The position numbers were made by a program, and so were the translations under genes. Shown piece by piece: positions 7,310-31,748 of a DNA stretch of 32,000 nucleotides (positions are counted from its first letter, which is position 1; the number at the start of each line of letters is the position of its first letter). Below the pieces are notes generated by a model. The model saw only the letters and a list, made by a program, of their open reading frames with translations. It had not been told where the DNA came from and did no database searches. The DNA is from Candidatus Nanohalobium constans (GTDB taxonomy: Archaea; Nanohalarchaeota; Nanosalinia; Nanosalinales; Nanosalinaceae), in contig NZ_CP040089.1 in assembly GCF_009617975.1 (NCBI RefSeq), positions 330,001 to 362,000 of the forward strand. The letters run 5' to 3'.

Positions 7310-8377
7310 TCACTTCATCACTTCTAGTCCTAGGTCGTTGACATCTCCGGTGACTTCTTTTTCGTCTTCTTCGTTGATGTCTCCGAGGACGTATGGACTT
7401 TCTACTCCCGTGATGATGGAGATGACCTGGATTTTTCCTTGTAGGCTGTCTTTGACTCTTGCGCCCCAGATTGTCTGTGCTTGGTTGTTGAGTTTGGTTT
7501 TGACGTGTTGTCCTACCTCGTTGATCTCGTTCAGGGTCAGGTCGTTTCCTCCTGCTACGTGTAGGAGTGCTCCGTTTGCTCCGTCGAAGTCTACATCGAG
7601 TAGTGGGTTGGAGAGTGCTTCGTGGATTGCTTCTTTTCCTTTGTTGTTTGTATCTGACTCGCCGTATCCTACTACTGCTACTCCTCCATCGTTCATGATT
7701 GCCTGGACATCTGCGTAATCTAGGTTGACGAGTGAAGGCTTGCTGATTGTTTCTGTGATTCCTTTGATCATTGTGGTGATGAGTTCGTCTGCTACGCCGA
7801 ATGCTTGGTCGAGTGGCATGTCTCCTGCGATTTCAAGGAGTTTGTCGTTTTCGATTACAATTGCTGTGTCTACATGTTGTCTTAGTTTGTAGAGTCCGTC
7901 CTCTGCTTTGCTCATTCGTGCTCCTTCGATTTCGAACGGCATTGTTACTGTTCCGATTACTATGCAGTCTTCTTTCTTTGCGATTTCTGCGAGGACTGGT
8001 GAGACTCCTGTTCCTGTTCCTCCTCCCATTCCTGCGGTGAGGAATACCATGTCAGCGTCTTTGAATAGGTTGCGTAGTTCGGCACGGTTTTCTTCTGCTG
8101 CTCGTGCTCCTTTTTCTGGTTGTCCTCCTGCTCCGAGTCCTTTGGTGAGGTCTCGTCCGACTAGTATTTTTCTATCGGCTGAGGACATCTGAAGATGCTG
8201 CTTATCGGTATTGATAGCAACAGTTTCAGCCCCTTCAACATCTTTGTTCTGGATGCGTGTAACCTGGTTGTTTCCAGCACCTCCTGCCCCTACTACCAGG
8301 ATCTTGGCATCTTTAACGTCGTCAAGATTTTCAGGGGTTTTACCTTCGTTTTCAGCGTTGTCTATTATAGATTCCAT
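7310..8377 (-). CDS. ftsZ: cell division GTPase FtsZ
   Basis: VGAGGAGNN N-terminal motif and tubulin signature GMGGGTGTG. 355 aa. Confidence 0.95.
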   Translation of the reverse strand: MESIIDNAENEGKTPENLDDVKDAKILVVGAGGAGNNQVTRIQNKDVEGAETVAINTDKQHLQMSSADRKILVGRDLTKGLGAGGQPEKGARAAEENRAELRNLFKDADMVFLTAGMGGGTGTGVSPVLAEIAKKEDCIVIGTVTMPFEIEGARMSKAEDGLYKLRQHVDTAIVIENDKLLEIAGDMPLDQAFGVADELITTMIKGITETISKPSLVNLDYADVQAIMNDGGVAVVGYGESDTNNKGKEAIHEALSNPLLDVDFDGANGALLHVAGGNDLTLNEINEVGQHVKTKLNNQAQTIWGARVKDSLQGKIQVISIITGVESPYVLGDINEEDEKEVTGDVNDLGLEVMK

Positions 8378-8407
8378 TAAACAATCAGCCTGCTTGTTAG
8401 CATTACC

Positions 8408-8416
8408 TTTTTAAAT
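8408..8416 (-). promoter_or_regulatory. TATA-like box for ftsZ
   Basis: The minus strand reads ATTTAAAAA, 31-39 nt upstream of the ftsZ ATG at 8377. Confidence 0.35.
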
Positions 8417-8444
8417 CGAGAGACCTAATTCTCCTATAGAAGTT

Positions 8445-8612
8445 GTGAGTCTTGCCCAAGACTCGATTCACATGCAAATACGATTGTTTGAACTTTGCCC
8501 AAAGTTCGAACCTAATACGATACTAAACTTCATTTGCCCGTTTCAAACTCGTGCCCGCGAGTTCGAAACAAATCTGATCTGTCATTTCATTCTCGTCCGC
8601 CCAAGGACGAAA
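8445..8612. repeat. Array of four related hairpins, each with a GCCC-containing loop
   Basis: H1 8447-8464 GAGTCTT-GCCC-AAGACTC. H2 8486-8511 GTTTGAACTTT-GCCC-AAAGTTCGAAC. H3 8540-8569 GTTTCAAACTCG-TGCCCG-CGAGTTCGAAAC. H4 8593-8610 TCGTCC-GCCCAA-GGACGA. There is an extra TTTGCCC at 8533-8539, and AATACGAT is repeated at 8477 and 8514. Confidence 0.6.
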
Positions 8613-8781
8613 ATTACTTGTTATCTAAACATTTTCTAGCCTCGTTTATAAATCTTCCGAATTCTGCCTTGATTGTTCGCACTGTTTAGAACAGTTCACA
8701 GATAGAGAAAAAACACTTCACAGACATTCACCGATGTTTCTGCAGTCGAATTCAAAAAACTTCGCTGACACAATTCTTAAC

Positions 8782-9060
8782 ATGGTAGATACTGAGGAAG
8801 TCAAACAAGTAGCAGAAAACGCACGCATCAAAATAAGTGACGAAGAAGCAGAAGACTTTACAGAAGACTTCCAGGAAATCCTAGGTATGTTCGAAACACT
8901 CGACCAGGTAGACACAGAAGATGTTGAACCAAGCTTCCATCCGGTAGAGACAGAATCAAAGCAGAGAGAAGACCAAAAAGAAGAAACACTGGAAAAAGAA
9001 GATGTCTTCCAGAATACAGAGAATGAGGAAGACGGTTATTTCAAGGGACCGAGCGTATAA
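8782..9060 (+). CDS. gatC: Asp/Glu-tRNA amidotransferase subunit C
   Basis: ...ARIKISDEEAEDF...LDQVDTEDVEPSFHP...REDQ...GYFKGPSV matches the GatC pattern. The ATG at 8782 gives the usual length of about 92 aa. The track's 8734 start adds a non-conserved extension. Confidence 0.8.
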   Translation: MVDTEEVKQVAENARIKISDEEAEDFTEDFQEILGMFETLDQVDTEDVEPSFHPVETESKQREDQKEETLEKEDVFQNTENEEDGYFKGPSV

Positions 9061-9099
9061 TCCTAAATCTTATTTCTATCATTCTCTAACCTTGACTTC

Positions 9100-9591
9100 A
9101 TGAAGATTGGAGTAATCTCAGATACACACGACAACTTGAGTTTGACTAGGAAAGCAGTGGAATTCTTCGAAGCTGAGAAAGTTGAGGCAGTTATTCACTG
9201 TGGAGACATGATTGCACCTTTCACTGCAGAACTCTTCGACGCAGACTTTGATTTCTATGCAGTCAGAGGAAATAATGATGGAGAGTGGAGTCTGAAAGAG
9301 ACAGTTGAACAGTTTGGAGAGTTCTACAATAATATCGCAGACTTAGAGTTTTCTGGTAAGAAGATAGCTGTTTATCACGGTACTGAAGAAGAAATTGTAG
9401 AAGGGTTAGTTGAGAAGGATTACGATTATGTTTTCCGAGGTCACACTCATCGTAAAAAAGTGGAGAGTCATGGAGACACTACTGAGTTAAATCCGGGCGG
9501 CATCAAGCTGCTGGGACAGGAGGAAGAGTTCAATTTTGCGGTTGTTGATTTAGAAGAAGATGAAATAGGGTTTCATGAGATAATTGATTAG
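9100..9591 (+). CDS. MJ0936/YfcE-family metallophosphoesterase
   Basis: Motifs ISDTHDN, HCGD, RGNNDG, GHTH in canonical order. 163 aa. Confidence 0.85.
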   Translation: MKIGVISDTHDNLSLTRKAVEFFEAEKVEAVIHCGDMIAPFTAELFDADFDFYAVRGNNDGEWSLKETVEQFGEFYNNIADLEFSGKKIAVYHGTEEEIVEGLVEKDYDYVFRGHTHRKKVESHGDTTELNPGGIKLLGQEEEFNFAVVDLEEDEIGFHEIID

Positions 9592-10253
9592 GATTTCTTT
9601 TTGCTAGAAACATGTCTTCCTCTCTGGCTGACTGTGTAGAGGTATTGGATTTCTTGGGGTGTTAGTACATGGTTGTAGATTCGGACCTCTGATACTGAGC
9701 CTTTAAACAGGTCACTGCTGTTTAAACCTCCGAGTTCAGTGTTGTTAGTCGATGAGTAAAGCTTAGATATTGAGTTGTCCGTTCCTTCGAGTTTACCGTT
9801 TTTGAAAACCCGCATCTCTGATCCAGTCCAAGACAGAGTATAGTGGTTCCAAGTGCTTTTAGGTGCTGAGATGGCAACGGCAGCATTACTGGATCCATCA
9901 GATGTATAGAAGTCAAGATCTCCGCCTGCCCATCTAATAGTGTATGTAAAAGAATTGTTGCTTGTTTTAGAATCGTCTCCCTGTCCTATAACATTGCTGA
10001 AATCGGTTATATCGCTGCCTGGTCGAGCCCAAAAGGAAACAGTAAAAGAACTGTTATCCTGGTTAAATCCTGTTGAGACATAATCATTGCTCCCATCAAA
10101 ACTGTATGCGTTTTGTCCTGTGGGTCCTATCGTTGCTCCAACCACTGTGCTATCTCCACCGTTGTTGACTGAACCATGTTTTTCGTTCCCGCTGTGGTCG
10201 TATGCTGTACTTCCTGATTCTTCGTTTAACGGCCAGTATCCGATTAAAACCAT
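9588..10253 (-). CDS. LamG (concanavalin A-like jelly-roll) protein, one domain, no signal peptide
   Basis: YWPLNEESGSTAYDHSGNEKHG...AYSFDGSNDYVSTG...FTVSFWARP...FKGSVSEVRIYNHVLTPQEIQYLY. TAATG junction with the upstream gene. Confidence 0.8.
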   Translation of the reverse strand: MVLIGYWPLNEESGSTAYDHSGNEKHGSVNNGGDSTVVGATIGPTGQNAYSFDGSNDYVSTGFNQDNSSFTVSFWARPGSDITDFSNVIGQGDDSKTSNNSFTYTIRWAGGDLDFYTSDGSSNAAVAISAPKSTWNHYTLSWTGSEMRVFKNGKLEGTDNSISKLYSSTNNTELGGLNSSDLFKGSVSEVRIYNHVLTPQEIQYLYTVSQRGRHVSSKKKS

Positions 10254-11599
10254 TATTGGTCACCTTTAGCGTTTACAGTCATTTTTCTCATGTCTCGTCC
10301 TCTGGTTCCCCATTGGTAGAGTTGGAATACTTCGTGAGGTTTTAGTGCTCGTTTGTAGATTCTGAGGTCGTCAATGTCGCCTGTGAAGTAGTTTCCGGAT
10401 GAGGTAGTGGTGTCAAATGTTCCGATGTTTAAGGGTTCTGAGGTTGATAATTTTCCTACAGCGGATATGTCTGCGGTGCCAGATAATGCGCCGTCAATGA
10501 ATAACAGGGTTTGGTTGCTTGATTTATCTACTACGAATGTGAAATGATGCCACGATGAATCGGCTATTTTTTTGTTTGAGGAAAGATCCACCTTATTTGA
10601 GCCATCATCCACTCTACAGTTCAGTGTATTATCGGAGTTAGCTCTCACAGAATATGTCTGATCGGCAAATCCCAGGAAATACTCAAACTCGCCTGACTGA
10701 GTGTATCTGAACCATCCAGACAAGGTAAAATCGGAATCTGATGGATAAAGCGATGAATCATTAGATACCTGCACATACTCATCAGATCCGTTAAACTGCA
10801 TAGCTTTCCCTCTAATCGAATTTGAGGTATACCCTGAGCTTGTGCCGCTTCCTCCATCATTACTTCCCCAAGAATCATTTACTGTGTCGTCAAATGTCCA
10901 TCTTGAGACTGCACCTGAATCGGAACTGTCATGTAAGCTTTGGTCTGTGTAGTCGCCGCTCCCCCATTCGTACAGTTTTTGTACTTCTTGAGGTGTTAGG
11001 GTTCGGTTGTAGAATCTTACGTCGCATATTTCTCCTGAGGCAGGGAAGCTTGCTGGTCGGTTTCCTATTCTGAATCTCCCGTTAAGTGAGAAATCTGAGT
11101 GGGATGAAATATCGCTTTGATCCACAAGTTCTCCATCCATATACAGATTAATCCTGTTCTCAGTCAGAGAGAAACAGAAGTGATGCCATTCATCAAAATA
11201 GTTTCCAGAGTCCTTAACCTCGGCAAAATTACTGTTGCCGTCATCGTAGTGAACTTGTGCTGCACCGGTATCAGATGTTCTAACAAACAAATAGGGTGTA
11301 TCGCCACTATCGGTGCTAGACAAAAACAAAATGTATCGATAATCGCTTGAGTCCATCTTAGCCCAGACAGAGAATGTCGAATTTTTGATGCTGTATTTTG
11401 AAGGCAGATTTATTCGAACATGCTGATCATTGGAATTATCGAAGCTATAAGCAGTTAGTCCTCCTTTACCTGCTACTCCTTGTGTAGGATATGTGGAGGT
11501 TGTGGATCCATCGCCAAGTGTTCCATGGTTGCCGTTTCCTGAAAGGTCGTTTGCTCGTCCATTGTTTTCATGTAGTGGCCACCATCCTGTAAGATTCAT
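10253..11599 (-). CDS. LamG protein, two tandem domains, no signal peptide
   Basis: Domain 1: WWPLHENNGRANDLSGNGNHG...AYSFDNSNDQHV...CDVRFYNRTLTPQEVQKLYEWG. Domain 2: RWTFDDTVNDSWGSNDG...AMQFNGSDEYVQV...IDDLRIYKRALKPHEVFQLYQWG. ATGA overlap with the upstream gene. Confidence 0.8.
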   Translation of the reverse strand: MNLTGWWPLHENNGRANDLSGNGNHGTLGDGSTTSTYPTQGVAGKGGLTAYSFDNSNDQHVRINLPSKYSIKNSTFSVWAKMDSSDYRYILFLSSTDSGDTPYLFVRTSDTGAAQVHYDDGNSNFAEVKDSGNYFDEWHHFCFSLTENRINLYMDGELVDQSDISSHSDFSLNGRFRIGNRPASFPASGEICDVRFYNRTLTPQEVQKLYEWGSGDYTDQSLHDSSDSGAVSRWTFDDTVNDSWGSNDGGSGTSSGYTSNSIRGKAMQFNGSDEYVQVSNDSSLYPSDSDFTLSGWFRYTQSGEFEYFLGFADQTYSVRANSDNTLNCRVDDGSNKVDLSSNKKIADSSWHHFTFVVDKSSNQTLLFIDGALSGTADISAVGKLSTSEPLNIGTFDTTTSSGNYFTGDIDDLRIYKRALKPHEVFQLYQWGTRGRDMRKMTVNAKGDQ

Positions 11600-13038
11600 T
11601 GCAGTGTATCACCTCTGCTGATTCTGTAAGCGCCTTTGTTGTACAGTTTTTCGATTTGGATTGGGTTGAGGACTTGGTTGTAGATTCGGACATCGTCAAC
11701 GTACCCTTTGTAGTGTGCGTTTCCGGTGTTGGATCCTATTGTTGAGGCTGCGGACAGGTCAGATACAGTGTTCTGTGTTTGAGACTGCTGATTCTCAAGA
11801 ATGCCATCTACATATATGGATGTAGTGCTGCCATCACTTGTCGAAACTACGTGATGCCAGTTACCGTCATTGACAGTTGTCTGAGATGAGATAATATCTG
11901 CAGAGCTGCCGGTATACGTTACACTGAATTTTCCGTTCCCATCTCTATTGACTCTGTGAACCCAGACTCCCTCTATCGATAGAGGGACAACATTTGTGCC
12001 TGTAGTCTCTGTTTTAATCCATTTGGAGATAGTTACGCTGCCGTCGCCGCTATCAAAGGCATTCTGCGGTAGTTCTACTTGGTCGTCACTTCCATCAAAC
12101 TCCTTTGCCTGATCATAGACCCCGTCAACAAATCCGGTGCTTGTACTGTCGGTGCCATCATTTTCTCCCCATGAATCATTTACTGAACCGTTTAATTTGT
12201 ATCTGCTGATTCCGCCCTGATTCTGACTAGGAACTTCTTGCCCAGTCCTTTTTATTCCACTTTGTACACCATTTCCGGAGTTGTACAATGCTTGTATTTC
12301 TGGTTCTGAAAGTGCTCGGTCGTAGATTCGTATATCGTCTATTTTTCCGTCATGGTAGGAACTTGGTCCGCTGCTTCCTTCTATAGCTCCTATCGCATCT
12401 ATTCTTCCTGATACTCCTTCGGTGTTGGAGGAGTTGGATTTTTTTACTTCTAGGGTATTGTTGATGTAGAGTTTTACATCTGGGTTGTCTCTTACTGCTA
12501 CTATGTGATACCAGGTTGATGCACTGGGAGATCTTCCGTTCAGCGTTGAGTTGTCTGATGATCCGAAATGAGTATATGTCAGTGAGTCTGTGCTGTTATC
12601 ATATCTTATGCTGATATTATTATTTGATAATGGGCATAGGAAGACTCTTTCTGAGGTCAGGTCACCGCAGTTTATCCATGCAGATATTGTATACTCGCCT
12701 CTCAGTGGAGGGATCTCGGTTTTTAGATTTACATAATCATCTGTTCCGTCGAAGCTTAGTGCGTTGTTCCCTGTATTGGAGTTGGCAGACCACATGTCAG
12801 AAGCAGAAGTGTTTGTTCCGTTGGTTCCTGGGTTAATCTGTCCATGATTTCCAGTGGCTCCGTCCAGCAAAACCTCTCCCTGCCCTTTCTCCATGGGGTA
12901 GTATGCTACTAATCCTCTGGTCAGGCTTCCGTGTTGATATCCTTGACTTAGTTTTCCGTTAGTGTCTATTCCGTCAGAGATTCCGGATGAGTCCTGTTCA
13001 TCTTTGAAGTCGTTGCTGTTCCATTTTAGTTTTACCAT
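11596..13038 (-). CDS. LamG protein, two tandem domains, no signal peptide
   Basis: Domain 1: AYYPMEKGQGEVLLDGATGNHG...ALSFDGTDDYVNL...IDDIRIYDRALSEPEIQALYNSG. Domain 2: RYKLNGSVNDSWGENDG...AKEFDGSDDQVEL...VDDVRIYNQVLNPIQIEKLYNKG. Confidence 0.8.
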   Translation of the reverse strand: MVKLKWNSNDFKDEQDSSGISDGIDTNGKLSQGYQHGSLTRGLVAYYPMEKGQGEVLLDGATGNHGQINPGTNGTNTSASDMWSANSNTGNNALSFDGTDDYVNLKTEIPPLRGEYTISAWINCGDLTSERVFLCPLSNNNISIRYDNSTDSLTYTHFGSSDNSTLNGRSPSASTWYHIVAVRDNPDVKLYINNTLEVKKSNSSNTEGVSGRIDAIGAIEGSSGPSSYHDGKIDDIRIYDRALSEPEIQALYNSGNGVQSGIKRTGQEVPSQNQGGISRYKLNGSVNDSWGENDGTDSTSTGFVDGVYDQAKEFDGSDDQVELPQNAFDSGDGSVTISKWIKTETTGTNVVPLSIEGVWVHRVNRDGNGKFSVTYTGSSADIISSQTTVNDGNWHHVVSTSDGSTTSIYVDGILENQQSQTQNTVSDLSAASTIGSNTGNAHYKGYVDDVRIYNQVLNPIQIEKLYNKGAYRISRGDTLQ

Positions 13039-13042
13039 TTTT

Positions 13043-13525
13043 CTACACTGAGAGTTCTATTGAGTTGATTTCTGCGGTTTTCTCCATGTTGGAGTTGGTT
13101 AGGGTTGTTTTGATCCAGTACTTGTTTCCTGTGCCGCCTTGTATGTTGCTTAGTGTGGTTGTGTTGGTTCCGTCGTTGATTGTTATTGTTTCTGTGTTGT
13201 CGGCTGTTCCGCTTCCGGTTGTGTCTTCGAATATTGTTATTTCTGCTGTCTGGCTGTTCAGTGTTGCGTCTACTGTTGCTGTAGGTCCGGTTGATGGTCC
13301 GGTTGTGGATATTGCCAGGATGTCGTTTGCTGTTTTGACTTTTACTGGTGTTGCATCTGAGTTTGAAGGGTCTACAAGGTTGAGTCCGCCGATCTCTGAA
13401 CCTACTTTGATTTTCAAGGACGGTGTTTCGGAGAAGTCGCTGAGTTGGTATACTGGCAGCTTTACTGGTGTTCCTGCTGATGTTTTCAAGCCGATTTCTC
13501 CGATTTTTCCCATTTTTTGGATCAC
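13043..13525 (-). CDS. hypothetical Thr/Ser-rich protein (160 aa), no signal peptide
   Basis: An ORF packed 4 nt upstream of the LamG gene and 7 nt downstream of the Tat-signal gene. The overlapping plus-strand ORFs (13065-13577, 13468-13899) look like shadow frames. No family recognised. Confidence 0.6.
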   Translation of the reverse strand: MIQKMGKIGEIGLKTSAGTPVKLPVYQLSDFSETPSLKIKVGSEIGGLNLVDPSNSDATPVKVKTANDILAISTTGPSTGPTATVDATLNSQTAEITIFEDTTGSGTADNTETITINDGTNTTTLSNIQGGTGNKYWIKTTLTNSNMEKTAEINSIELSV

Positions 13526-13532
13526 TTGTTAT

Positions 13533-13859
13533 TTATGCGCTGGAGTCGTACCAGATTTCTCCTTCTTCCGGATTTGAAGGGTCACCGTTCACTGTTGGCA
13601 GTTTCAATGTATCTGAGGATGACATGTCGGCGTTTGAGTTCATGACTACTTCTGTGTCAAACGTTGCTGGTCCACCGTCGGTTATATCGAACTCTGTGTT
13701 GCTGTCAGTTCCAAAGAACTTCAGGTCACTGCTTTTTATGTCGACTGCTGATGCAGGAAGCATTGAGAATGCTCCTACACCTGCTAATCCGAGCCCGGCT
13801 TTTTTCAGGAATTTTCTCCTGCTTATGTTTCCTTCAGCTTCTTCGTTTTCTTGTTTCAT
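13533..13859 (-). CDS. small secreted protein with a twin-arginine (Tat) signal peptide
   Basis: The N-terminus ...NISRRKFLKKAGLGLAGVGAFSMLPASAVD contains the consensus SRRxFLK, an h-region and an AxA-like site. The mature part is about 70 aa and ends LKLPTVNGDPSNPEEGEIWYDSSA. Confidence 0.75.
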   Translation of the reverse strand: MKQENEEAEGNISRRKFLKKAGLGLAGVGAFSMLPASAVDIKSSDLKFFGTDSNTEFDITDGGPATFDTEVVMNSNADMSSSDTLKLPTVNGDPSNPEEGEIWYDSSA

Positions 13860-13913: not shown

Positions 13914-14738
13914 TCAGCAGGTCTCGCCAAGACAGACAGGAGCATTTACTGGTTTAACCTCAGTTGTGTTTAATGTTCCGTCCATTGAATTGTTTTCTGT
14001 GTTCACATAGCCTTCTAAACTGCCTGTTGAGATGCTGCAGTTGTTGCCAAGACAGTTAAAGTCGATGCTATCTGTTTGAAGTGTTCCGGTCATGTTGTCT
14101 CCGGAACGGTTTACATACTTTTCAGTTCCACTTAGTTCAGAACCACTTGTCGAACTACATCCTTCTCCGATACAGATTGGTGTGCCGTCGCCTGATCGAA
14201 GAGATGACTGTATGTCCAGTGATTCCATCTCACCGCCTGATGTCAAGAGCTTCTCTATAACAACTTGGACTATCTTGATAGGTCCTTGAATCTGCCCAGA
14301 AGCTTCCAGATCTGTCAATCCTCCGGCGTCGTAAATTACACTTAAATCATAAGTGTTGCTCCCTTCAGAGCGTTCTACATTACTTAAGGTTATAGTGTCA
14401 GAGGCTCCGATAGGGACAGAAATTTGAGAGCTGTTTGAAGTCTTTAGAGTATTATTTGATGGATCAGAAATCTTTACTTCATTAACAGTTACATCCTCAG
14501 AAGCTGCAGCCCGTACACGCATCTGCAGATTTCCCTCTGAGGTAACACCGAAATCAGTTACCTCAATCTTTGAATCGGAAAGCCCAGAAACAGCCTCAAC
14601 GCCTCCTTGACTCTGGATAACTGAGAAAATCGCTCCGCCTACAACCGCAACTACAACAAGCATCCATCCATAAGTAGTCAAGTACTCAATCGCAGACTGT
14701 CCTTTACTAACTTCTCGACCTATAAAACCAGAAAACAT
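13914..14738 (-). CDS. archaeal type IV pilin-like protein (class III signal peptide) with a Cys-loop / GDxMxGxL C-terminal region
   Basis: The N-terminus ...REVSKG|QSAIEYLTTYGWMLVVVAVVGGAIF is a class III signal with Gln at +1. The C-terminus has PICIGEGC, KYVNRSGDNMTGTL, NCLGNNC, GYVNTENNSMDGTL, VCLGETC. Paralogue of 23458-24249. Confidence 0.75.
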   Translation of the reverse strand: MFSGFIGREVSKGQSAIEYLTTYGWMLVVVAVVGGAIFSVIQSQGGVEAVSGLSDSKIEVTDFGVTSEGNLQMRVRAAASEDVTVNEVKISDPSNNTLKTSNSSQISVPIGASDTITLSNVERSEGSNTYDLSVIYDAGGLTDLEASGQIQGPIKIVQVVIEKLLTSGGEMESLDIQSSLRSGDGTPICIGEGCSSTSGSELSGTEKYVNRSGDNMTGTLQTDSIDFNCLGNNCSISTGSLEGYVNTENNSMDGTLNTTEVKPVNAPVCLGETC

Positions 14739-23417: not shown

Positions 23418-23457
23418 CTGAGTTAAATAAACGAGTGAATCTAATTCTAGGTTGTTG

Positions 23458-24249
23458 ATGAGTAGTAGGCTTGGACAGTCGGGTGTTGAGTACTTAGCTA
23501 CTTATGGCTGGATGGCTGTAGCAGTCACAGTTGCAGGGGCGGCACTTTATCCGAGTTTGAATACTGGTTGTAATGTTCAGCTTGACGGCGATATCAGAAC
23601 CGGAGGGTTGGCAATTGAACAAGTTGGAGCTGATAAGAACGGCACATTGAAGGTTATTTTCGACAGTGATACTAGGGAGAAACTTCAGGTGGAGTCTATA
23701 AGGCTTGAAGGGAGTGAGGACAGCTTGACTGTTGTACAGCCTCGGGAAATCTCTCCTGGCGGGGAAATTGCGTATAAAATAGGAGATGTCGAGAGAACAT
23801 CGGGCTGTGATACTTTTGATGCAGAGATAACCTTTGATAAAGGACCTCTTCAGAGCCAGAAGAAACAAATTGAGATATCTGCACCTTATGAACTGGTTAA
23901 AAGATTTCTTTCTCTTATCCGTACAAGAGGCGATAGTATTGAGCACCTTGAAGTAGATGCTTCAGTAAAACCAACGAATGAAACGATATGTGTAGGTTTA
24001 GGGTGTGGTATAACTGAAGGAGGCAACGCAACCGAGCCTGAAAAATATCTTAATTACAGTGGGGACAGCATGAGGGGTACTCTGAGAACAAACCGTTTTG
24101 ATTCGGTCTGCTACGGCGTGAAATGTGAGGAAAAAGGTGGAGACATTGAGGGATATGTTAACTCTAACGAAAGCTTCATGGCAGGCACACTTCGGTTGAC
24201 CGAACTGATGCCCAAAAATGATGATGAAAAGAAGATCCTGCTAAAGTAG
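23458..24249 (+). CDS. archaeal type IV pilin-like protein (class III signal peptide) with a Cys-loop / GDxMxGxL C-terminal region
   Basis: MSSRLG|QSGVEYLATYGWMAVAVTVAGAALY. The C-terminus has ICVGLGC, KYLNYSGDSMRGTL, VCYGVKC, GYVNSNESFMAGTL, collinear with 13914-14738. The ATG at 23458 is preferred to the TTG at 23452. TTAAATAAA lies at 23424-23432. Confidence 0.7.
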   Translation: MSSRLGQSGVEYLATYGWMAVAVTVAGAALYPSLNTGCNVQLDGDIRTGGLAIEQVGADKNGTLKVIFDSDTREKLQVESIRLEGSEDSLTVVQPREISPGGEIAYKIGDVERTSGCDTFDAEITFDKGPLQSQKKQIEISAPYELVKRFLSLIRTRGDSIEHLEVDASVKPTNETICVGLGCGITEGGNATEPEKYLNYSGDSMRGTLRTNRFDSVCYGVKCEEKGGDIEGYVNSNESFMAGTLRLTELMPKNDDEKKILLK

Positions 24250-24321: not shown

Positions 24322-26016
24322 ATGCGTAAACTACTGATTTCAGCACTCATTTTAGCAACAGTAACATCGGCTTCAGCTGAGATAGACTTCAGATCAGACC
24401 AGCCGATAGACTTCTACAACCACATTGATTTGAACGACAACGAGATAAGACAGTTTTTTAACCAATCCTGCGGAGAAGACCAAGCAGTAAAAGACGTATA
24501 TAATAACGGATCATTCGAATGTGCGCCAGCAGGAGGATTAGACACTGCAGTAGAAGTTAACAATACTTTGATTAAGAATATTGACGCCAACGGCTACCAG
24601 ATAACTAATCTAGCCGATCCTGCATCCGTAACAGGAGACTCAGCTGCCAGGTGGAAAGACGTAGTCAGTATCGAAGGAGACACATTAAAAGGAAACCTCA
24701 ACCTGAACGGATACAACATTTCAGATGTAGATACACTTAAATTTCAGTCAGGATTCAGTATAAACGGCTCTCTGAATACTTCAGGAGGAAATGTAAACCT
24801 TGATAACGGTAGTATAAGCGATGTCTACGCAATTGACGGCGGAGGCGACGAAATCGACGTACTAGATCCAGTAGACCTGAACGGCAACCAACTGAGAAAC
24901 TCAGAAGGAAGACTTGAAATAGACGGTGCAGTATACCTGCCATCAGGGAACCTAGACATGGCAGGCAACAACCTCATAAACCCGGGAAACGTAGACGGAG
25001 TAGACCTAGACAATCCTGCAGAATCCCTGACGATAAAAAACAACAGATACCAAATAATAGCAAGCTCAATAGGTAACAACAAGCTAAATAACTCTCAAAG
25101 AATAACTGTAGATGGCTTAACAAGCACAGCAAATATCAACGCCACAGGAAACATATTGAAAGAAGTAAACAGCGTAGAAGGCTCAGGAAACCTTACACTC
25201 AGGTCAGAAGCATCAAACGGAGTGGTATTAGAGAAAGAAGATGGAACCCAAATACTGACGGCAGGAACAGCAAATGAAGAAGTGGCAATTCCCAACGGCG
25301 ATCTCGACATCGAAAACAACGGTTTAACGATAAGAGGAGGGGATGGAACAGATTACACACTCGGTCAGTTTGGCAACGGAATTGAAATATCCCGACAAGG
25401 TTCTGGAAACTCCGAACTAAATATAGAGCCAGGAGTCACAGAACTAGGATCCTCAAAGATTGAAATTGTAAGGGGAAACCTCGATCTTCAGGGCAACTCG
25501 ATTGTTGATTCCACCTCAAGCAATTCAATACCAATAGGAGATGGAACAGATGACTCAGTAACAATAAATGCCGGGGGCACAGGGCAGTACACAGTAAACA
25601 CAGGGGATAACTCAGGAAGCACAAAAAAGAGGCTTCAGATAACAGCAGACTCCAGCAAATCAGATATAGATATCCAGAATGCAAACCTAGATCTAAACAG
25701 CAATAAAATCAAAAACTACTATGGGTCAGCCTGTCCATCAGGAGAAACAGTAGTAAACATCAACAATGACGGCACATTTGACTGTGTCAGCATCGCAAAC
25801 GACGTATCGGATGTATACGTCAACAGGTCAGGAGACTCCCTGAAAGGAAATCTAGACATGCGCGGCAACGAACTACAAGATGTAGGGAAAGCAGGAATCA
25901 ACACAGCTAATCCACAAGAAGACCTAGATGTCGACGGAACAGCATCAGTACAAAACGCAGGAACAGAAATGAAAGTAGACTCAAACGGAAACGTAGTGGT
26001 GAGCCTAGGACAATGA
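24322..26016 (+). CDS. secreted fibre/beta-helix-like repeat protein (564 aa)
   Basis: Sec-type signal MRKLLISALILATVTSASA. Many GNL(D/N)(L/M)xGNxIxN repeats. Two Cys-bracketed modules and YVNRSGDSLKGNLDMRGNELQDVG. Confidence 0.75.
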   Translation: MRKLLISALILATVTSASAEIDFRSDQPIDFYNHIDLNDNEIRQFFNQSCGEDQAVKDVYNNGSFECAPAGGLDTAVEVNNTLIKNIDANGYQITNLADPASVTGDSAARWKDVVSIEGDTLKGNLNLNGYNISDVDTLKFQSGFSINGSLNTSGGNVNLDNGSISDVYAIDGGGDEIDVLDPVDLNGNQLRNSEGRLEIDGAVYLPSGNLDMAGNNLINPGNVDGVDLDNPAESLTIKNNRYQIIASSIGNNKLNNSQRITVDGLTSTANINATGNILKEVNSVEGSGNLTLRSEASNGVVLEKEDGTQILTAGTANEEVAIPNGDLDIENNGLTIRGGDGTDYTLGQFGNGIEISRQGSGNSELNIEPGVTELGSSKIEIVRGNLDLQGNSIVDSTSSNSIPIGDGTDDSVTINAGGTGQYTVNTGDNSGSTKKRLQITADSSKSDIDIQNANLDLNSNKIKNYYGSACPSGETVVNINNDGTFDCVSIANDVSDVYVNRSGDSLKGNLDMRGNELQDVGKAGINTANPQEDLDVDGTASVQNAGTEMKVDSNGNVVVSLGQ

Positions 26017-29000
26017 AAAACAAGAAAACAATTCTAACCTTAGCTTTAATCGCACTAACAGCAACAGTAACTGCCAGCGATTACATAATAGAAGACAGCA
26101 ACGGCGACAACCTCTTCGTAGTCAACGAAACAGGAGAAAAACAAATCCAGAACGGCAACCTATACCTCAACGGAAACAAGATAACTGATCAAGAAGGCAC
26201 ACTCACCTTAGACGGGGGGAACGTAGAAATACCTAACGGAAACCTAGATATCTCAAACAACGTCAAAGCTAACAGCTTCAATCTGAAGTCATCAAATTAT
26301 GCTATACGATATGATAGTGGAACCGACTCAATACAGTTCAGAGATACTCAAAACGGAGATAACGAACTATGGATAAGAAGAAACGGAGATGTCCAAATTC
26401 CCAACGGCAACCTAAACATGAACGAAAACCGGATAAATAACGTTGGAAGACTGGACCTAGGCTGGGCTAACCTAACAGACTATCCAAACGGCTGCGGTCC
26501 CGAAGAAGCAGTAAGAGTAATCGGCGACACACTAGACTGCGTCTCACTAGATCCAAGCGGATCAGTAGGCGGAGGCGGAGAAAAAGGAGAAATCGCCTTC
26601 TACATAGACGGAGAAAACATCACAGGCAGCAACAACCTATACTGGAACAACTCACAAACAAGACTAGGACTAGCAACAAGTAATCCCTCAGCAACCCTAG
26701 ATGTAAACGGAGACGCCCAAGTAAACGGTCAATTAAACCTAAAATCCAACGAAATAACCGGAATAACAAACCTAGAAGGAACAAACATCGTAAACAACAA
26801 CCAGATATCCTCAGGAGCAATATCAAAAAACAAGCTCTCAACCAATTCAGTGGGTATAAACGAACTTGACTCAACCACAGCAGGAGACGGACTATCTGGA
26901 GGAAGCGGATCAGCCCTATCAGTAAACACCGGAACAGGAATCACAACCAACTCCGACAAAGTACAAATAGACACAACCCTAGTACCACGTAAAAACACTG
27001 ACGAAACAATAACAGCAAACCAATGGACATACCAAAACGATGTACAGATAAGAGGAAACCTCGACGTCTGGGGAAATGTACAGAACACAGACGTATCCAA
27101 CCTAAACATCAACGGATCACTCCTACCACCATCAGGATACACCGACACATTCAACGTAGGAAGCTCCAGCCGAAGATGGAAAACAGGATACTTCCAAGAC
27201 ATAACCCTAGGAAACAACGCAATAGACAACTCAGAAATCACAAACACAGACATAACAATCAACGCAAACTCAGGTCTATCAGGAGGAGGAACAACCAACC
27301 TAGGAGGAAGCACAGGACTAAGCCACGCAGACACATCAAATATAGGAAACATCGACAACTCCGGAGGAACCATCATCCAAGACCTCAACTTTGACGGCTA
27401 CGGACACGTCACAGGACAAAACAGCTACAACCTAGACAACCGATACTACACAGAAACAGAATCCGACAGTAACTTTGTGGATGAGAGCGGAGATACAATG
27501 ACTGGACCTCTGAACATATCTGATAATGAAATTGAAGATGCTAGAGGTATAAGCTTCAGTAACAATGGTGATTCTGGCTATATTAGAGAATATAGTGGAG
27601 GAGCTTTAGCTATAAATAGTCAGGGTAATGCTCTTCGCCTACAAGATGATAATTCTCAATTGGTAAGTATAGAAAGTAGTCTAAATATGAATTCTAATCT
27701 AATCAATAATTTCTTCGGCAGTAACTGTGCCTCTGATGAAGTAGTTGAAAGTGTTAACTCGGATGGTACCTACAACTGTAAATCAATCACTGGAACAGCC
27801 GATGACACATACGTAAATGAAGGTGGAGACACCATGACGGGAGCCCTTGATATGAGCGGCAATAATGTACAGAATGTAGGAACGATAAACGCCTCAACAA
27901 TCCAAGAAAACGGAAACGACATCGGCGGTCTATTCGTTGATGAATCAGGAGACTCAATGAGCGGAAGCCTCAACATGCAAGGACATCATGTAGACAATCT
28001 GAACTATCTTGACTTGAATTCTGAAGGACAAATTCAGACAGATGGAACAGACGCAATCAGATTCGATGGCAGTCAGAACATTGAGATTCCAAACGGAAAC
28101 CTAAATATCCGTAACGGAGGCATGATTAGTTTCACTAACGATGATTATATTGGACATGAGGGGAACGATATTAGGATGGAAACAGGTAGGAATATGAGGC
28201 TGGTTATAGACGGTGAAGGTGGTGGCGAGAGTTACCATGATTTAGAGGTGAGAAATTCTAATGGAGATAATTTGCTGGATGTGAGCCCGAATGGAAATAT
28301 TCAGATTCCTAATGGCTATCTGGACATGAACTCTAATGATATCAGGAACCTGGAGACTCCTGATTCTGGGACTGATGCTGCTACGAAGGATTATGTTGAT
28401 GCTCAGACTGGAGATGCTGAATCCGGGGCTACGCAGACTTTAAGCCAGGTGCTGTCTGAAGGTAATGATGCTGGTAGTCAGGCTATAACGAGTATTGGTT
28501 CTGGTAATATTGATATTGATGGTAGTGGTTCTGGTAATATCCAGTTGAATAATGAGGAGGTTAGAGGTGGTAGTATTACACAGTCGAACAACTTGATTGC
28601 TGGTTCTTACAGTACTGGTGAGTCCAGTGTTGATGGCGGTGATGTCTGGGTTGAGAACGATGTAGAGGTCGGTGGAGATATTGTTGGTTCTGGAGCGGAT
28701 GTTGCCGAGAAGATCAACAATGAATCCCAGCTAGAACCTGGTACGGTGGTAACTATCTCAGGTAATAACAGTGTTGACAAGACTCAAGGAAAACATGATA
28801 GAATGGTTGCAGGAGTAGTTTCAACCGATCCAGCAATGGTGATGGCTAAGGAAAGAGACGGGGTACCGATCGCTATGACTGGAACAGTACCGGTCAAAGT
28901 CACGATGGAGAACGGAGAAATTAAACCAGGAGACATGTTAACAACATCCTCCGCTGCCGGTAAGGCTATGAAGTGTCAAGACCTGACAAAATGCACAGGC

Positions 29001-29072
29001 TCAATCATAGGAAAAGCATTAGAACCAGCAGAAAAAACCTCTAAAATCAATATGCTTATCTCGATGAGTTAA
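26013..29072 (+). CDS. secreted giant fibre protein (1019 aa) with a tail-fibre-like tip
   Basis: ATGA overlap with the upstream gene. Signal MKNKKTILTLALIALTATVTASD. Three GDxMxGxL motifs. IRNLETPDSGTDAATKDYVD. C-terminal block GVVSTDPAMVMAKERDGVPIAMTGTVPVKVTMENGEIKPGDMLTTSSAAGKAMK. Confidence 0.75.
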   Translation: MKNKKTILTLALIALTATVTASDYIIEDSNGDNLFVVNETGEKQIQNGNLYLNGNKITDQEGTLTLDGGNVEIPNGNLDISNNVKANSFNLKSSNYAIRYDSGTDSIQFRDTQNGDNELWIRRNGDVQIPNGNLNMNENRINNVGRLDLGWANLTDYPNGCGPEEAVRVIGDTLDCVSLDPSGSVGGGGEKGEIAFYIDGENITGSNNLYWNNSQTRLGLATSNPSATLDVNGDAQVNGQLNLKSNEITGITNLEGTNIVNNNQISSGAISKNKLSTNSVGINELDSTTAGDGLSGGSGSALSVNTGTGITTNSDKVQIDTTLVPRKNTDETITANQWTYQNDVQIRGNLDVWGNVQNTDVSNLNINGSLLPPSGYTDTFNVGSSSRRWKTGYFQDITLGNNAIDNSEITNTDITINANSGLSGGGTTNLGGSTGLSHADTSNIGNIDNSGGTIIQDLNFDGYGHVTGQNSYNLDNRYYTETESDSNFVDESGDTMTGPLNISDNEIEDARGISFSNNGDSGYIREYSGGALAINSQGNALRLQDDNSQLVSIESSLNMNSNLINNFFGSNCASDEVVESVNSDGTYNCKSITGTADDTYVNEGGDTMTGALDMSGNNVQNVGTINASTIQENGNDIGGLFVDESGDSMSGSLNMQGHHVDNLNYLDLNSEGQIQTDGTDAIRFDGSQNIEIPNGNLNIRNGGMISFTNDDYIGHEGNDIRMETGRNMRLVIDGEGGGESYHDLEVRNSNGDNLLDVSPNGNIQIPNGYLDMNSNDIRNLETPDSGTDAATKDYVDAQTGDAESGATQTLSQVLSEGNDAGSQAITSIGSGNIDIDGSGSGNIQLNNEEVRGGSITQSNNLIAGSYSTGESSVDGGDVWVENDVEVGGDIVGSGADVAEKINNESQLEPGTVVTISGNNSVDKTQGKHDRMVAGVVSTDPAMVMAKERDGVPIAMTGTVPVKVTMENGEIKPGDMLTTSSAAGKAMKCQDLTKCTGSIIGKALEPAEKTSKINMLISMS

Positions 29073-29075
29073 AAA

Positions 29076-30272
29076 ATGAAATACGGGGTCTTAGAGGCAG
29101 CAACCGCAGCAGCAATAATCGCCACATCAGTCTCACTGCTGTACACGCCGCCAGAACCGAGCTGGGAGACAGAAGTAGTAGCCAACGATACTTATGGGAA
29201 GTTTGTGGAAGTAGATTCTTATGGAAGCAATGTAGGAATTGCATATGTAGACTCGATTGACACAGGGTTGAGGCTGGCAGAGAAAAGCTACTCGACCTCA
29301 ATCACCGATTTCTCAGCTCAGAGAAAGGGGAACTGGGATACACAGGTAATAGATAATAGATCAGAGACAGGGATGTATCCATCACTGGAGTCAAAGAGCG
29401 GTCAACCGTCGATTTCATACCAAGATGGAGACCTAGGAAATGAAAAACTGTACTACGCAAATAGGCAGAACGGTGAATGGAACAGGACAGAAGTCGATAA
29501 TGTTGTAGGAGGTGGAACCTCCGTAGGAATGTACTCCTCACTCAACTTCCACCAAAGCAAACCTGTAATATTTTACCACTCACCTTCTCAAGGGCTGAAA
29601 ATGGCTGAGAAAAAACAGGAATGGAGCAAAGAAATACTTGAGGACGGACAGGGATGGTATACAGAGACATCGAAATGCGGGAACACGATAAAAGTAGCCT
29701 ATACAGGCAGAAACTCTGAACAGTTAAAGATAGGAGAATACGACGGAGGTTGGAGTTCAGAAAACACCTCAACCAAGATAAAATCAGACCTCGACATCGA
29801 CACAGATCAACGATGCGATGAACAACTAGCATACCTAGACACCGAAACAGAACAGATAACCTACAAAGACCAAGATTCAAGGACATTCGGTGATGCATTC
29901 TTCACAAGACTAGCTCTTACATCAAAAGGAAATACTACACATCTAGTATACCACGATGAAGGAACAGGTCTAAAATATGCAAAGAAAAAAGATGGAGAAT
30001 GGACGACCAAAACAATAAAACAAGGCTCAGAAACAGGAGAGTACAACGACATAGAAATCGACCACATAGGAAACATCCACACGGCTTACACAAGCCAAAA
30101 AAAAGTATACCACACAGTATACAACAAAGGAACCACACAAAAGATACAGTCAAAAACTGATGAAGTGAAGATTGGACTAGGATTGATATCAGCACTACTA
30201 CTCATATTCACAGCAATTAGACAGGAAGTAATAGCTAAAATAATCCAGAAAATAGGTGAGATCCAGAGATGA
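29076..30272 (+). CDS. membrane protein with about seven propeller-like repeats, hydrophobic helices at both ends
   Basis: Starts 4 nt after the fibre gene. N-terminal AATAAAIIATSVSLLY and C-terminal IGLGLISALLLIFTAI. Seven repeats of about 45-50 aa, of the type TGMYPSLESKSGQPSISYQDGDLGNEKLYYANRQNGEWNRTEVD. Confidence 0.7.
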   Translation: MKYGVLEAATAAAIIATSVSLLYTPPEPSWETEVVANDTYGKFVEVDSYGSNVGIAYVDSIDTGLRLAEKSYSTSITDFSAQRKGNWDTQVIDNRSETGMYPSLESKSGQPSISYQDGDLGNEKLYYANRQNGEWNRTEVDNVVGGGTSVGMYSSLNFHQSKPVIFYHSPSQGLKMAEKKQEWSKEILEDGQGWYTETSKCGNTIKVAYTGRNSEQLKIGEYDGGWSSENTSTKIKSDLDIDTDQRCDEQLAYLDTETEQITYKDQDSRTFGDAFFTRLALTSKGNTTHLVYHDEGTGLKYAKKKDGEWTTKTIKQGSETGEYNDIEIDHIGNIHTAYTSQKKVYHTVYNKGTTQKIQSKTDEVKIGLGLISALLLIFTAIRQEVIAKIIQKIGEIQR

Positions 30273-30498: not shown

Positions 30499-31065
30499 GT
30501 GGTAGATAGAAAGCTGAAGAGATGGGTTGAGCAGCAGTTGGATAAAGGGGAATCACGTGAAGTAATACAGAAAGCTTTAGAGAATAAGGGCTATGATCCT
30601 TCGATAGTAGATGAAGTTGAAGAAGAGGAGGTTAGTTCAAGTATCTCCATCAATTCTGAGGATAAAATCAGAAAAATATCTTTAGGTGTAGAGAAGGGTA
30701 TTGAAGGAGCATCTGAAATCCGTGTTAAACAAGTGATAATCCTTTCGACCATATTAACAGCTTTATTTCTAGGATTATACTTTCAGCCATTTGCCACAGA
30801 CAAAAAAACATCAGAAGAACCTGCAACAGTAACCTTGGGAAAAGTCTCTGCCAATCCGGCAACAGCTACAATCAACCGTACTGATGCTGTTAAATTCAGG
30901 AACAATGCGTCACATTCGTTCAAGGTAAGTTTTGACAGGAATATCTCTTCTTTCAGCATTCAACCCGGTAGTTCTGTGGTCAGGAATTTTAACAGAACCA
31001 CTTATTATGATGCCGACCCATTGGATGATGGACGTACAATTAAGGGAAGTATCTATACTCCTTGA
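30499..31065 (+). CDS. bitopic membrane protein: small N-terminal helical domain, TM helix, cupredoxin-like C-terminal domain
   Basis: The GTG start is supported by alignment with the paralogue (VDRKLKRWVEQQLDKGESREVIQKALENKGYDPSIVDEV against EDSNIRKWIEKELRNGENPRELKEALLEEGYKPSIVDEV). TM helix VIILSTILTALFLGLYF. TTTTTTATCC lies about 25-33 nt upstream. Confidence 0.6.
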   Translation: MVDRKLKRWVEQQLDKGESREVIQKALENKGYDPSIVDEVEEEEVSSSISINSEDKIRKISLGVEKGIEGASEIRVKQVIILSTILTALFLGLYFQPFATDKKTSEEPATVTLGKVSANPATATINRTDAVKFRNNASHSFKVSFDRNISSFSIQPGSSVVRNFNRTTYYDADPLDDGRTIKGSIYTP

Positions 31066-31109: not shown

Positions 31110-31748
31110 ATGGAGGATTCAAACATCCGGAAATGGATCGAAAAAGAATTGAGAAACGGAGAGAATCCTCGTGAACTCAAGGAAGCACTTCTGGAAGAAG
31201 GCTACAAACCATCAATAGTAGACGAAGTAAAACAAGAAACAAACCATGAAAAAACGACAAACAATACAGAAGAAATTAAACAAAAAATACAGAAAAGCGA
31301 AACAATAACCGAAAAACTCGAAAAAGAGATAAAGAAAGAATGGAAACCAAGGCTAGCTATAATCATAGTCATAGCAACAGTAGCAACAGGAACAATTCTA
31401 GCAACACCAATAACAAACACAATAAACAACACAGATAAACCTATCCAGGAAAAAACCGGGCAGACCGACCAAACAGAAAAACAAAACAAGGCAGGAAACA
31501 CCACCACAATCAAACTCTCTAATGGTGTAGCCAAGCCATCAAGACCATCAATAACGCCAGAAGAAAACATAAAATTCCAAAACAAAGAAAACTACAAAAT
31601 GAAGATAGTATTCGAATCAGAAAAAGAAAACCTGCAGATACCCGCCCAAGACTCCAAAACAACAAACCTTAACTCACTGACATACTACACTGCAAAACCC
31701 GCAGAAACCACTGCAGAACAAATATCAGGATCCATAATAGTCCAGTAA
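31110..31748 (+). CDS. paralogue of 30499-31065 (N-terminal helical domain, TM, cupredoxin-like domain)
   Basis: Same architecture. TM helix LAIIIVIATVATGTILA. C-terminal ...IKFQNKENYKMKIVF...LTYYTAKPAETTAEQISGSIIVQ. ATTTTTTATT lies about 25-33 nt upstream. Confidence 0.65.
   Translation: MEDSNIRKWIEKELRNGENPRELKEALLEEGYKPSIVDEVKQETNHEKTTNNTEEIKQKIQKSETITEKLEKEIKKEWKPRLAIIIVIATVATGTILATPITNTINNTDKPIQEKTGQTDQTEKQNKAGNTTTIKLSNGVAKPSRPSITPEENIKFQNKENYKMKIVFESEKENLQIPAQDSKTTNLNSLTYYTAKPAETTAEQISGSIIVQ

Follow-up and report, generated by a model that had tools for sequence, protein, structure and literature searches.

Results

Organization of the two loci

The analysed window, 32,000 nucleotides of the Candidatus Nanohalobium constans LC1Nh genome (contig NZ_CP040089.1, positions 330,001 to 362,000), contains two genes, designated here A and B, the products of which are very probably modular type IV pilins, each combining a pilin module with a separate, new head. 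The organism belongs to the nanohaloarchaea (DPANN) and lives in culture as an ectosymbiont of Halomicrobium. Gene A (LC1Nh_0404) occupies positions 13914-14738 of the window on the minus strand, and the translation of its open reading frame (ORF) gave 274 amino acids with a leader, a pilin module and a head of alternating Cys loops and GD motifs. In the gene table of 10.1101/794461 the same gene is located at genome positions 343914-344738, and the locus tags used here were taken from the supplement of that work. The product of A was 100% identical to a protein recorded for Ca. Nanohalobium constans. Gene B (LC1Nh_0415, 265 amino acids) is situated on the plus strand at 23452-24249. Both ORFs are present where an earlier note on this DNA had placed them, the minus strand of A having gone unstated there. 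The ATG at 23458, given in that note as the start of B, does exist, whereas the annotated start is the TTG at 23452, two codons upstream. The two proteins aligned over 253 residues with 32% identity (BLASTP, E 1e-41) and are therefore paralogues over their full length.

Protein A is composed of three parts. The class III leader, residues 1-13 (MFSGFIGREVSKG; 14700-14738), ends at the predicted prepilin-peptidase cut between G13 and Q14. The pilin module, residues 14-157 (14268-14699), contains a hydrophobic helix (16-44) and a beta-sandwich (49-156). In the head, residues 158-274 (13917-14267), an SGGE strand is followed by CIGEGC, YVNRSGDNMTGTL, CLGNNC, YVNTENNSMDGTL and CLGETC. The corresponding parts of B are the leader MLMSSRLG, with the predicted cut ahead of Gln, the pilin module at 23476-23904 and the head at 23905-24246, in which the third Cys loop is absent.

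Each gene heads an operon. Directly downstream of A on the minus strand, a 108-residue protein with a twin-arginine translocation (Tat) signal is encoded (LC1Nh_0403, 13533-13859), followed by a 156-160-residue protein without a signal peptide (13043-13513) and by three LamG_3 lectin-like proteins, likewise without signal peptides (11596-13038, 10253-11599 and 9588-10253; Laminin_G_3 E 1e-22 to 5e-51). The order on the plus strand is B, a 564-residue Sec-signal fibre with two Cys hairpins and two GDxLxGxL motifs (LC1Nh_0416, 24322-26016), a 1019-residue Sec-signal fibre with three GDxMxGxL motifs and two Cys hairpins (LC1Nh_0417, 26013-29072) and, as the final gene, a 398-residue protein with hydrophobic N- and C-terminal segments (LC1Nh_0418, 29076-30272; 3-bp ORF spacing).

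The N-terminal module is that of a type IV pilin

The N-termini were confirmed as quoted before, MFSGFIGREVSKG/QSAIEYLTTYGWM in A and MLMSSRLG/QSGVEYLATYGWM in B. In both proteins, a short leader ending in Gly, the predicted cleavage site and about 20 hydrophobic residues follow one another (...SKG/QSAIEYLTTYGWMLVVVAVVGGAIF in A, ...RLG/QSGVEYLATYGWMAVAVTVAGAAL in B). The string K-G-Q-S-A-I-E-Y-L-x-T-Y-G-W was invariant or nearly so among 14 full-length and 15 N-terminal homologues, and residues K12, G13, Q14, S15, E18, Y19 and L20 of A were invariant or nearly invariant across the family. At the KG/QSAIEYLTTYGWM site of A, the Gln at +1 and the Glu at +5, kept family-wide, are followed by the hydrophobic helix. 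A and B carry QSAIE with the Ser at +2, compared with +3 in the QxSxE-type EppA/DUF361 motif. Gln at +1 is characteristic of EppA-type archaeal pilin substrates.

The AlphaFold model of A resulted in a predicted helix at 16-44 and beta-sandwich strands at 49-156, the sandwich having a pLDDT (predicted local distance difference test) of ~80. The sole Foldseek match in the PDB at E <1e-3 was 8fk7_A, the archaeal type IV pilus subunit of Pyrobaculum calidifontis (E 1.9e-5, probability 1.00), which was also the best, albeit weak, profile match among the PDB sequences (E 0.04). Residues 12-156 of A were 44% identical to LC1Nh_1133 (E 4e-42). According to the published tables, LC1Nh_1133 is part of a pilus locus with a pilin (1128), a helix-turn-helix (HTH) protein (1129), a FlaI-type ATPase (1130), two FlaJ/TadC-like proteins (1131 and 1132) and this second pilin; LC1Nh_1135-1138, with G/Q-type N-termini, belong to the same locus. 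One of these, LC1Nh_1137, matched Pfam PF04021 Class_IIIsignal below the cut-off (E 8e-4). The complete genome of a second nanohaloarchaeon encodes a headless 156-residue paralogue; its gene directly follows those of an HTH protein, of a T2SSE ATPase and of two T2SSF platform proteins and adjoins genes of small DUF7266/DUF7287-like proteins. The earlier description of A and B as pilin-like is thus supported by the invariance of the motif, by the helix and sandwich with their match to 8fk7_A, and by headless paralogues in pilus loci.

One pilin module carries many heads

Proteins homologous to the N-terminal ~150 residues of A were found in 87 loci, and approximately two thirds of them were headless proteins of 141-190 amino acids. 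The others were fused to LamG_3, PKD, DUF285 or FGE-sulfatase/C-type-lectin domains, the C-terminal partner families being PF13385, PF00801/PF18911, PF03382 and PF03781. The family is essentially limited to Nanohaloarchaeota, with several paralogues per genome and weaker relatives in Micrarchaeota. As the module carries LamG, PKD, DUF285 and FGE/C-type-lectin heads elsewhere, A and B can be placed among surface-displayed, ligand-binding pilin fusions.

The same module (KGQSAIEYLTTYGWML and the beta-sandwich; P0039, E 1e-19) was detected in LC1Nh_0008 and LC1Nh_0123. These are NvpA and NvpB, described by La Cono et al. (10.1101/794461) as variable proteins of a diversity-generating retroelement (DGR). 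No mention of their pilin part was found in the available text and supplement of that work. Judged from their sequences, LC1Nh_0008 and LC1Nh_0123 would be hypervariable modular pilins.

The head is a separate domain

The alternation of Cys loops and GD motifs was found exactly as had been noted. In A it runs, on the minus strand, from CIGEGC (14157-14174) through YVNRSGDNMTGTL (14079-14117), CLGNNC (14037-14054) and YVNTENNSMDGTL (13971-14009) to CLGETC (13917-13934); the order in B is CVGLGC, YLNYSGDSMRGTL, CYGVKC and YVNSNESFMAGTL. The strict motif G[DN]xMxGxL occurred 5 times in the six-frame translation of the 32 kb, in all cases within three of the genes discussed here, compared with a chance expectation of ~0.06 according to our own rough estimate, made from residue frequencies without a tool. 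The Cys and GD residues were invariant or nearly so when 14 full-length and 44 head-only homologues were compared, which indicates that the pattern is real and conserved rather than an effect of composition. The similarity had earlier been considered open to such an effect; with these positions conserved and the motif confined to these genes, none was seen.

The head was modelled by AlphaFold as a monomer with the 44-sequence alignment. A pLDDT of 92.6 and a predicted template modelling score (pTM) of 0.85 were obtained, and all five models were above 92. The predicted fold is all-beta, and two YVNxSGDxMxGTL motifs are interspersed between its three short CxGxxC loops. The view of the head as an unfoldable fibre-type segment, to which a pLDDT of ~40 with full-length A and 14 sequences had pointed, was overturned by the 44-sequence head alignment. 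Foldseek searches with the head gave no significant match, the best E values being 0.7 for the PDB and 0.13 for BFVD. Similarly, the head matched no Pfam, NCBIfam or PHROG family and no phage genome in tblastn, and the three family collections yielded nothing informative for A, B or the fibres. A, the two fibres, P0091 (a head-profile match described below) and the head profile were also compared with the PDB sequences, again without a match.

A search of 1.8 billion cluster representatives with the head-only profile retrieved 154 proteins at E <=1e-3. The complete head was present at the C-terminus of ~60 of these. It follows either the Q-type pilin module or a second type of archaeal pilin (KGVTPVIATVLL, with a weak Pilin_N match and sometimes with intervening PKD domains), or it ends large Sec-signal proteins. 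In variants, the paired cysteines of one loop vanish or are respaced jointly (C-x4-C, C-x10-C, C-x12-C), from which it may be deduced that each loop has its own disulfide; every CxGxxC loop would then be closed by a bond of its own. Judged from the model, the head is a previously undescribed autonomous domain.

A tandem repeat, CIGxDC(R/Y)xSWP, was observed in some of the head-profile matches (P0118, P0091). The CxGxxC loop is therefore also an independent repeat element outside the head.

A short motif is shared with fibres and phage proteins

The earlier note had ascribed one GDxMxGxL motif to the 564-residue fibre and three to the 1019-residue fibre. The latter are present as stated; the former is a Leu variant, YVNRSGDSLKGNL (GDSLKGNL), and it has a second, previously overlooked copy, EGDTLKGNL, at 24664-24699. 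When the hidden Markov model of the head was compared with the ORFs of the window, the 1019-residue fibre was matched with E 8.8e-5. The remaining matches of the head profile were fibres of 300-5300 residues with up to 22 matching stretches each, all of them at the GD-motif positions. These proteins, like the two fibres of the window, are composed of units in which a Cys hairpin of 12-20 residues precedes YVNxSGDxMxGxL. The units follow the element order of the head, Cys loop and GD motif, but with longer loops and without CxGxxC. Giant proteins of 2000-5300 residues (P0068-P0112) contain dozens of units of the form GAGLTDC...LLWD..TGRFSCGTD...RYVN.SGDTMTGAL, for which there is no Pfam family, and in one giant GD-repeat protein (P0070) a Fibritin_C domain is present.

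The alignment of the head with a fibre unit by hhalign was limited to 22 columns (probability 96.9%, E 2e-10), and that with the N-terminal 145 residues of the adjacent fibres to 24 columns. Since only 22-24 columns align, the head and the fibres have a short motif in common and not a domain. Of the proposal that the head shares modules with the fibres, the part concerning the motif YVNxSGDxMxGxL holds, whereas sharing of a whole module was not found. Two further candidate relations were rejected. The first strand of the head (LDIQSSL) resembles the N-termini of the partner proteins (VDIKSSDL, IDFRSDQ), but hhalign aligned the GD motif alone (probability 54%). Co-variation of the C-terminal CxGxxC of a pilin with that of its fibre was broken by two loci (L067, L058).

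GDxMxG-type motifs are common in tail-fibre proteins of phages and viruses. One annotated case was found here, in Bacillus phage vB_BspM_AgentSmith, in agreement with the earlier statement that such motifs occur in phage tail fibres. A literature search for GDTMTG yielded no paper. The 296 GD-pattern matches in viral contigs are only ~3 times the number expected from a rough chance estimate and were not used as evidence. Two segments of the 1019-residue fibre resemble phage proteins in other respects. In PA5oct-like Pseudomonas jumbo phages, a virion structural protein annotated as 'baseplate wedge subunit and tail pin' had ~34% identity to residues 895-1016 (28695-29060; tblastn, E ~5e-5), and these residues also matched phrog_22593. 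Residues 438-532 (27324-27608) matched gp35 of Roseobacter phage CRP-118, encoded just upstream of the tail fibre assembly gene of that phage; the match spans HADTS..NSGG.VIQD..GHVTG.

The motif in an annotated phage tail fibre and the resemblance of the two fibre segments to phage structural proteins (E 4e-5 to 2e-4) would be expected if the loci were prophage tail-fibre modules left by a virus or a tailocin. This origin is nearly excluded. The window holds no other viral genes and its flanks encode IleRS, CysRS, riboflavin synthase and FtsZ; furthermore, the loci are syntenic across Nanohaloarchaeota. The pilin module and the head had no relatives in 2.9 million IMG/VR contigs, and the head had no fold match in BFVD.

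Head-bearing pilins precede genes of secreted proteins

The fetched nanohaloarchaeal loci, 1.9 Mb in total, contained 15 distinct pilin genes with a head and 154 other members of the family. A fibre with a signal peptide and a conserved mature N-terminus, [IVM][EDTV]F[RDN][DSH] (e.g. EIDFRSD, EVEFRDD, DMEFRSS, DITFDHS), is encoded directly after 11 of the 15 but after none of the 154 (Fisher p = 2e-14). The remaining four genes are either located at the end of a contig or of the A type, and the linkage persists across head subfamilies which are just 30-40% identical. The mature N-terminus of fibre LC1Nh_0416 is EIDFRSDQPIDFY, and N-termini of this kind were found only downstream of head-bearing pilins. 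The gene next after the fibre often encodes a Tat-signal protein with the N-terminus ALDIRD, YDIKSS or VDIKSS (ALDIRD or YDIKSS in L004, L067 and L090). In the A operon, LC1Nh_0403 has a TIGR01409 Tat signal over the cut-off (22.3 bits) and a mature N-terminus, VDIKSSDLKFF, resembling those of the fibres. These results are strong evidence that the head-bearing pilin and the secreted protein downstream of it are a functional unit, the evidence being gene linkage and physical contact not being implied.

The Sec and Tat partners of the head-bearing pilins all start, behind the predicted cut of the signal, with similar sequences (hydrophobic, D/E, hydrophobic, R/K, D/S, D/S), such as EIDFRSD, VDIKSSD, YIIEDSN and ALDIRDS. 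In the window this start is located at 24379-24420, 26079-26120 and 13722-13757, and it was also seen in L004, L026, L058, L067 and L090-L102. The shared start could be a common docking strand.

Other features of the two operons bear on the export and anchoring of the partners. The ortholog locus L001 (61% identity; 5199-10387) keeps the gene order of the A operon, which is followed there by tatA and tatC. The LamG proteins are without signal peptides and were nevertheless detected in the secretome (see below), and the only signal later in the A operon is that of the 108-residue Tat protein; together with the tatA and tatC genes, this raises the possibility that a folded lectin complex is co-exported by a Tat 'hitchhiker' mechanism. 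LC1Nh_0418, which had no Pfam or NCBIfam match, contains repeated G.Y.S stretches suggesting a beta-propeller. Owing to its two hydrophobic termini, it may be a membrane partner or anchor of the fibres.

Instead of cooperating physically with the fibres, the head could itself be an adhesin or receptor-binding domain and the fibres adhesins in their own right, linked to it by co-regulation only. The head is predicted to be an autonomous, confidently folded monomer, it occupies the position of the LamG, PKD and DGR-diversified C-type-lectin modules of the sister pilins, it also ends large secreted proteins, and its similarity to the fibres is one short motif. On the other hand, the linkage to one kind of downstream protein (11/15 vs 0/154) is unusually strict, and its extension across head subfamilies of 30-40% identity exceeds what would be expected from shared regulation alone. 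This explanation is therefore considered possible, though somewhat unlikely.

Expression in co-culture

The peptide counts of the published co-culture proteome (10.1101/794461), given here as biomass/secretome, were as follows. A (0404) was detected by 0/4 peptides. Among the products of the B operon, the fibres 0416 and 0417 were represented by 20/12 and 29/31 peptides, respectively, and 0418 by 10/19. The LamG proteins 0399, 0400 and 0401 gave 9/9, 7/32 and 12/25. The pilins of the pilus locus were detected as well, 1128 (PAI 4) by 8/0 and 1133 by 3/7 peptides. Pili-like stalks were observed on Ca. Nanohalobium constans cells by the authors of the same work.

The confinement of A to the secretome fraction would also be expected if the class III-like N-terminus were used for export only and the protein were released as a soluble factor. 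We regard this as very unlikely. After cleavage, a hydrophobic helix of 20-30 residues is left, which is incompatible with a soluble monomer, and the module is homologous to filament subunits; moreover, sheared pili would land in the 'secretome' too.

Discussion

Proposed function of A and B

According to the reading which we prefer, A and B present a new head on a modular pilin and act together with the secreted proteins encoded downstream; the probability of this reading is estimated at roughly 0.5. A prepilin peptidase would cut the leader ahead of Gln +1, and the N-terminal helix would insert A and B into a pilus built by LC1Nh_1130-1132. The chances that they are incorporated into a filament at all are judged to be even. 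A and B would probably be rare or tip subunits with the head exposed. The head and the co-encoded secreted proteins, phage-tail-fibre-like fibres in the case of B and the Tat protein with the LamG lectins in the case of A, would then fasten the nanohaloarchaeal cell to its Halomicrobium host or to a substrate. In this process the head might either dock the partners at the pilus or bind the target alongside them. A physical docking of the fibres by the head is doubtful. The gene linkage is consistent with a tip or adaptor role, and we infer this role and the insertion into the filament from the homology to filament subunits, the analogy to modular pilins and PilY1-type systems, and the linkage. 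Since each gene directly precedes genes of secreted proteins, A and B are probably part of the apparatus by which the cell holds its host.

Several results weigh against this reading. No A24 prepilin peptidase is annotated in the published LC1Nh tables, where two are listed for the host, and searches of these tables for arCOG, COG1989, PulO, FlaK and A24 identifiers found none. In addition, no active-site motif of the GxGDxK type was detected in 1.2 Mb of fetched loci or in the published LC1Nh protein table. The leader of B is atypical, having Leu instead of Lys or Arg at -2. Profile searches for Pfam class III signal/DUF361, proposed earlier as a check, gave no match, and no Pfam or NCBIfam family at all, including PF04021 Class_IIIsignal and PF07790 Pilin_N, was hit by A or B at E <=1. 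Both are stand-alone genes outside the LC1Nh pilus locus. B was represented by 0 peptides in the biomass and 0 in the secretome. The secretome fraction was not clean, as it contained cytoplasmic proteins such as IleRS. The head was also found on large Sec-signal proteins without a pilin part (P0089, P0155, P0160), which indicates that it is not intrinsically an element of pili. Finally, a head which is a confident monomer with only a 22-residue fibre motif argues against co-assembly into one fibre; its occurrence on non-pilin proteins and its monomeric fold favour a binding or docking domain instead.

As for the peptidase, LC1Nh has, according to the published tables, genes of at least two FlaI/FlaJ-type systems and of many G/Q-type pilins. 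An A24 peptidase has been reported in other Nanohaloarchaeota (PMC9563170), and EppA is restricted to clade 1 systems (PMC4858521). Either the LC1Nh peptidase sits among the hypothetical proteins or these pilins are processed in an unusual way.

The position of A and B as stand-alone genes far from the pilus locus would agree with their display in the membrane. They would be tethered there, or in a very short pseudopilus, after the manner of the Sulfolobus bindosome or of pseudopili, and would never enter long pili; the head at the surface would anchor the secreted fibres or cooperate with them. Class III signals processed by PibD are known from archaeal surface proteins other than pili, e.g. 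sugar-binding proteins (PMC4858521). The fibres themselves lack an anchor, and the last protein of the B operon has two hydrophobic termini. However, A and B retain far more than a bare signal peptide, namely the complete globular pilin domain of the pilins of the locus (44% identity), and the detection of A in the secretome with none in the biomass is better explained by a shed filament than by an integral anchor. An exclusively membrane-bound display is therefore regarded as unlikely, and pilins presenting their heads together with secreted partners are preferred.

Comparison with known systems

The closest architectural parallel is found in PilB and PilC of Streptococcus sanguinis (PMC9934059), which, like A and B, consist of a class III signal, a pilin moiety and a C-terminal folded module, vWA in PilB and Ig together with a concanavalin A-like (ConA-like) lectin in PilC. 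LamG modules, which are ConA-like as is the lectin module of PilC, are found in sister proteins of A and B. In both cases a presentation of adhesive modules on the pilus has been proposed. The differences are considerable. A and B are archaeal and have Gln at +1, while PilB and PilC are of the bacterial type with N-methylated Phe or Met. In A and B the major-pilin fold is retained at full size in the pilin moiety, the head is a Cys-loop domain not described before, and the genes are situated outside the pilus locus, ahead of genes of secreted fibres. Furthermore, a tip location has been modelled for PilB and PilC (PMC9934059), and for A and B it is a proposal.

Among archaeal pilins, the subunit of P. 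calidifontis (PDB 8FK7) has, as A and B do, an N-terminal hydrophobic helix and a beta-sandwich (Foldseek E 1.9e-5). The G/Q context and the Glu at +5 are shared with archaeal pilins including the DUF361 pilins of Methanococcus maripaludis, processed by EppA, and, as for these, paralogues of A and B adjoin genes of VirB11/FlaI-type ATPases and TadC/FlaJ-like proteins. Unlike them, A and B have an extra head of 110 residues and no Class_IIIsignal or Pilin_N match.

A pilin-like subunit holding a large non-pilin adhesin is also known from the bacterial minor-pilin/PilY1 tip complexes and from the predicted DUF2341 tip adhesins of archaea (PMC4858521, PMC9934059). The resemblance to A and B is an analogy only, no sequence relation having been found; an association of pilus genes with LamG-like lectins is common to both. 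In the Sulfolobus bindosome, extracellular domains are likewise exported or anchored through a prepilin-type N-terminus, but the bindosome proteins are without a globular pilin domain and have ABC-transporter partners, in contrast to the pilin domain and the fibre or lectin partners of A and B. With phage tail fibres, exemplified by that of Bacillus phage vB_BspM_AgentSmith, the head shares (Y)VNxxGDxMxGxL; otherwise it has no detectable relation to them in sequence or fold and is modelled as a monomer, whereas the fibres of the window have further segments in common with phage structural proteins. Finally, NvpA and NvpB have the pilin N-module and the module-plus-head architecture of A and B, but their head is a retroelement-diversified FGE/C-type-lectin fold; the heads of A and B are of the Cys-loop/GD type and show no indication of being DGR targets.

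Neither modular pilins nor functional proteins with class III signals are new as such. The novel elements are an archaeal pilin family in which heads, some of them DGR targets, are interchangeable, the head domain of A and B, and the fixed pairing of this domain with secreted fibres.

Significance

DPANN episymbionts have to recognize and hold their hosts, and concrete, testable candidates for this function are a pilin family with differing ligand-binding heads, the DGR-hypervariable proteins among them, and the new head domain, paired with secreted fibres reminiscent of the receptor-binding proteins of phages. Ca. Nanohalobium constans is among the few DPANN episymbionts which can be cultured with the host; as the loci are expressed in co-culture, antibodies, pilus preparations and structural work are feasible. 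The previously unannotated domain family of ~110 residues defined here comprises more than 60 clusters at 50% identity. Modular pilins, characterised so far in few bacteria, are widespread in an archaeal phylum.

A broader proposal, which we consider speculative and improbable as a whole, is that nanohaloarchaeal pili are a programmable scaffold for host recognition with interchangeable heads, in which the Cys-loop head would be the tip socket mounting the fibres and the Tat-exported lectin complexes. If it were true, the symbiont would probe and seize its haloarchaeal host by a 'pilus-mounted tail fibre'.

Additional observations

Two further parts of the window, outside the A and B operons, were noted. 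At 24-2219 on the plus strand, LC1Nh_0389 is a surface protein with VWA and CARDB domains and a C-terminal hydrophobic tail, PGIGFYQLLVLFTAATVLYSAAL; its ORF probably starts upstream of the window, and no match to the PGF-CTERM model was obtained. Two adjacent genes on the same strand, 30499-31065 and 31110-31748, encode paralogues for which no family match was found and which have in common an N-terminal KRWVEQQL.KGE...I...L...GY.PSIVDEV domain, one transmembrane segment and similar beta-rich C-terminal domains.

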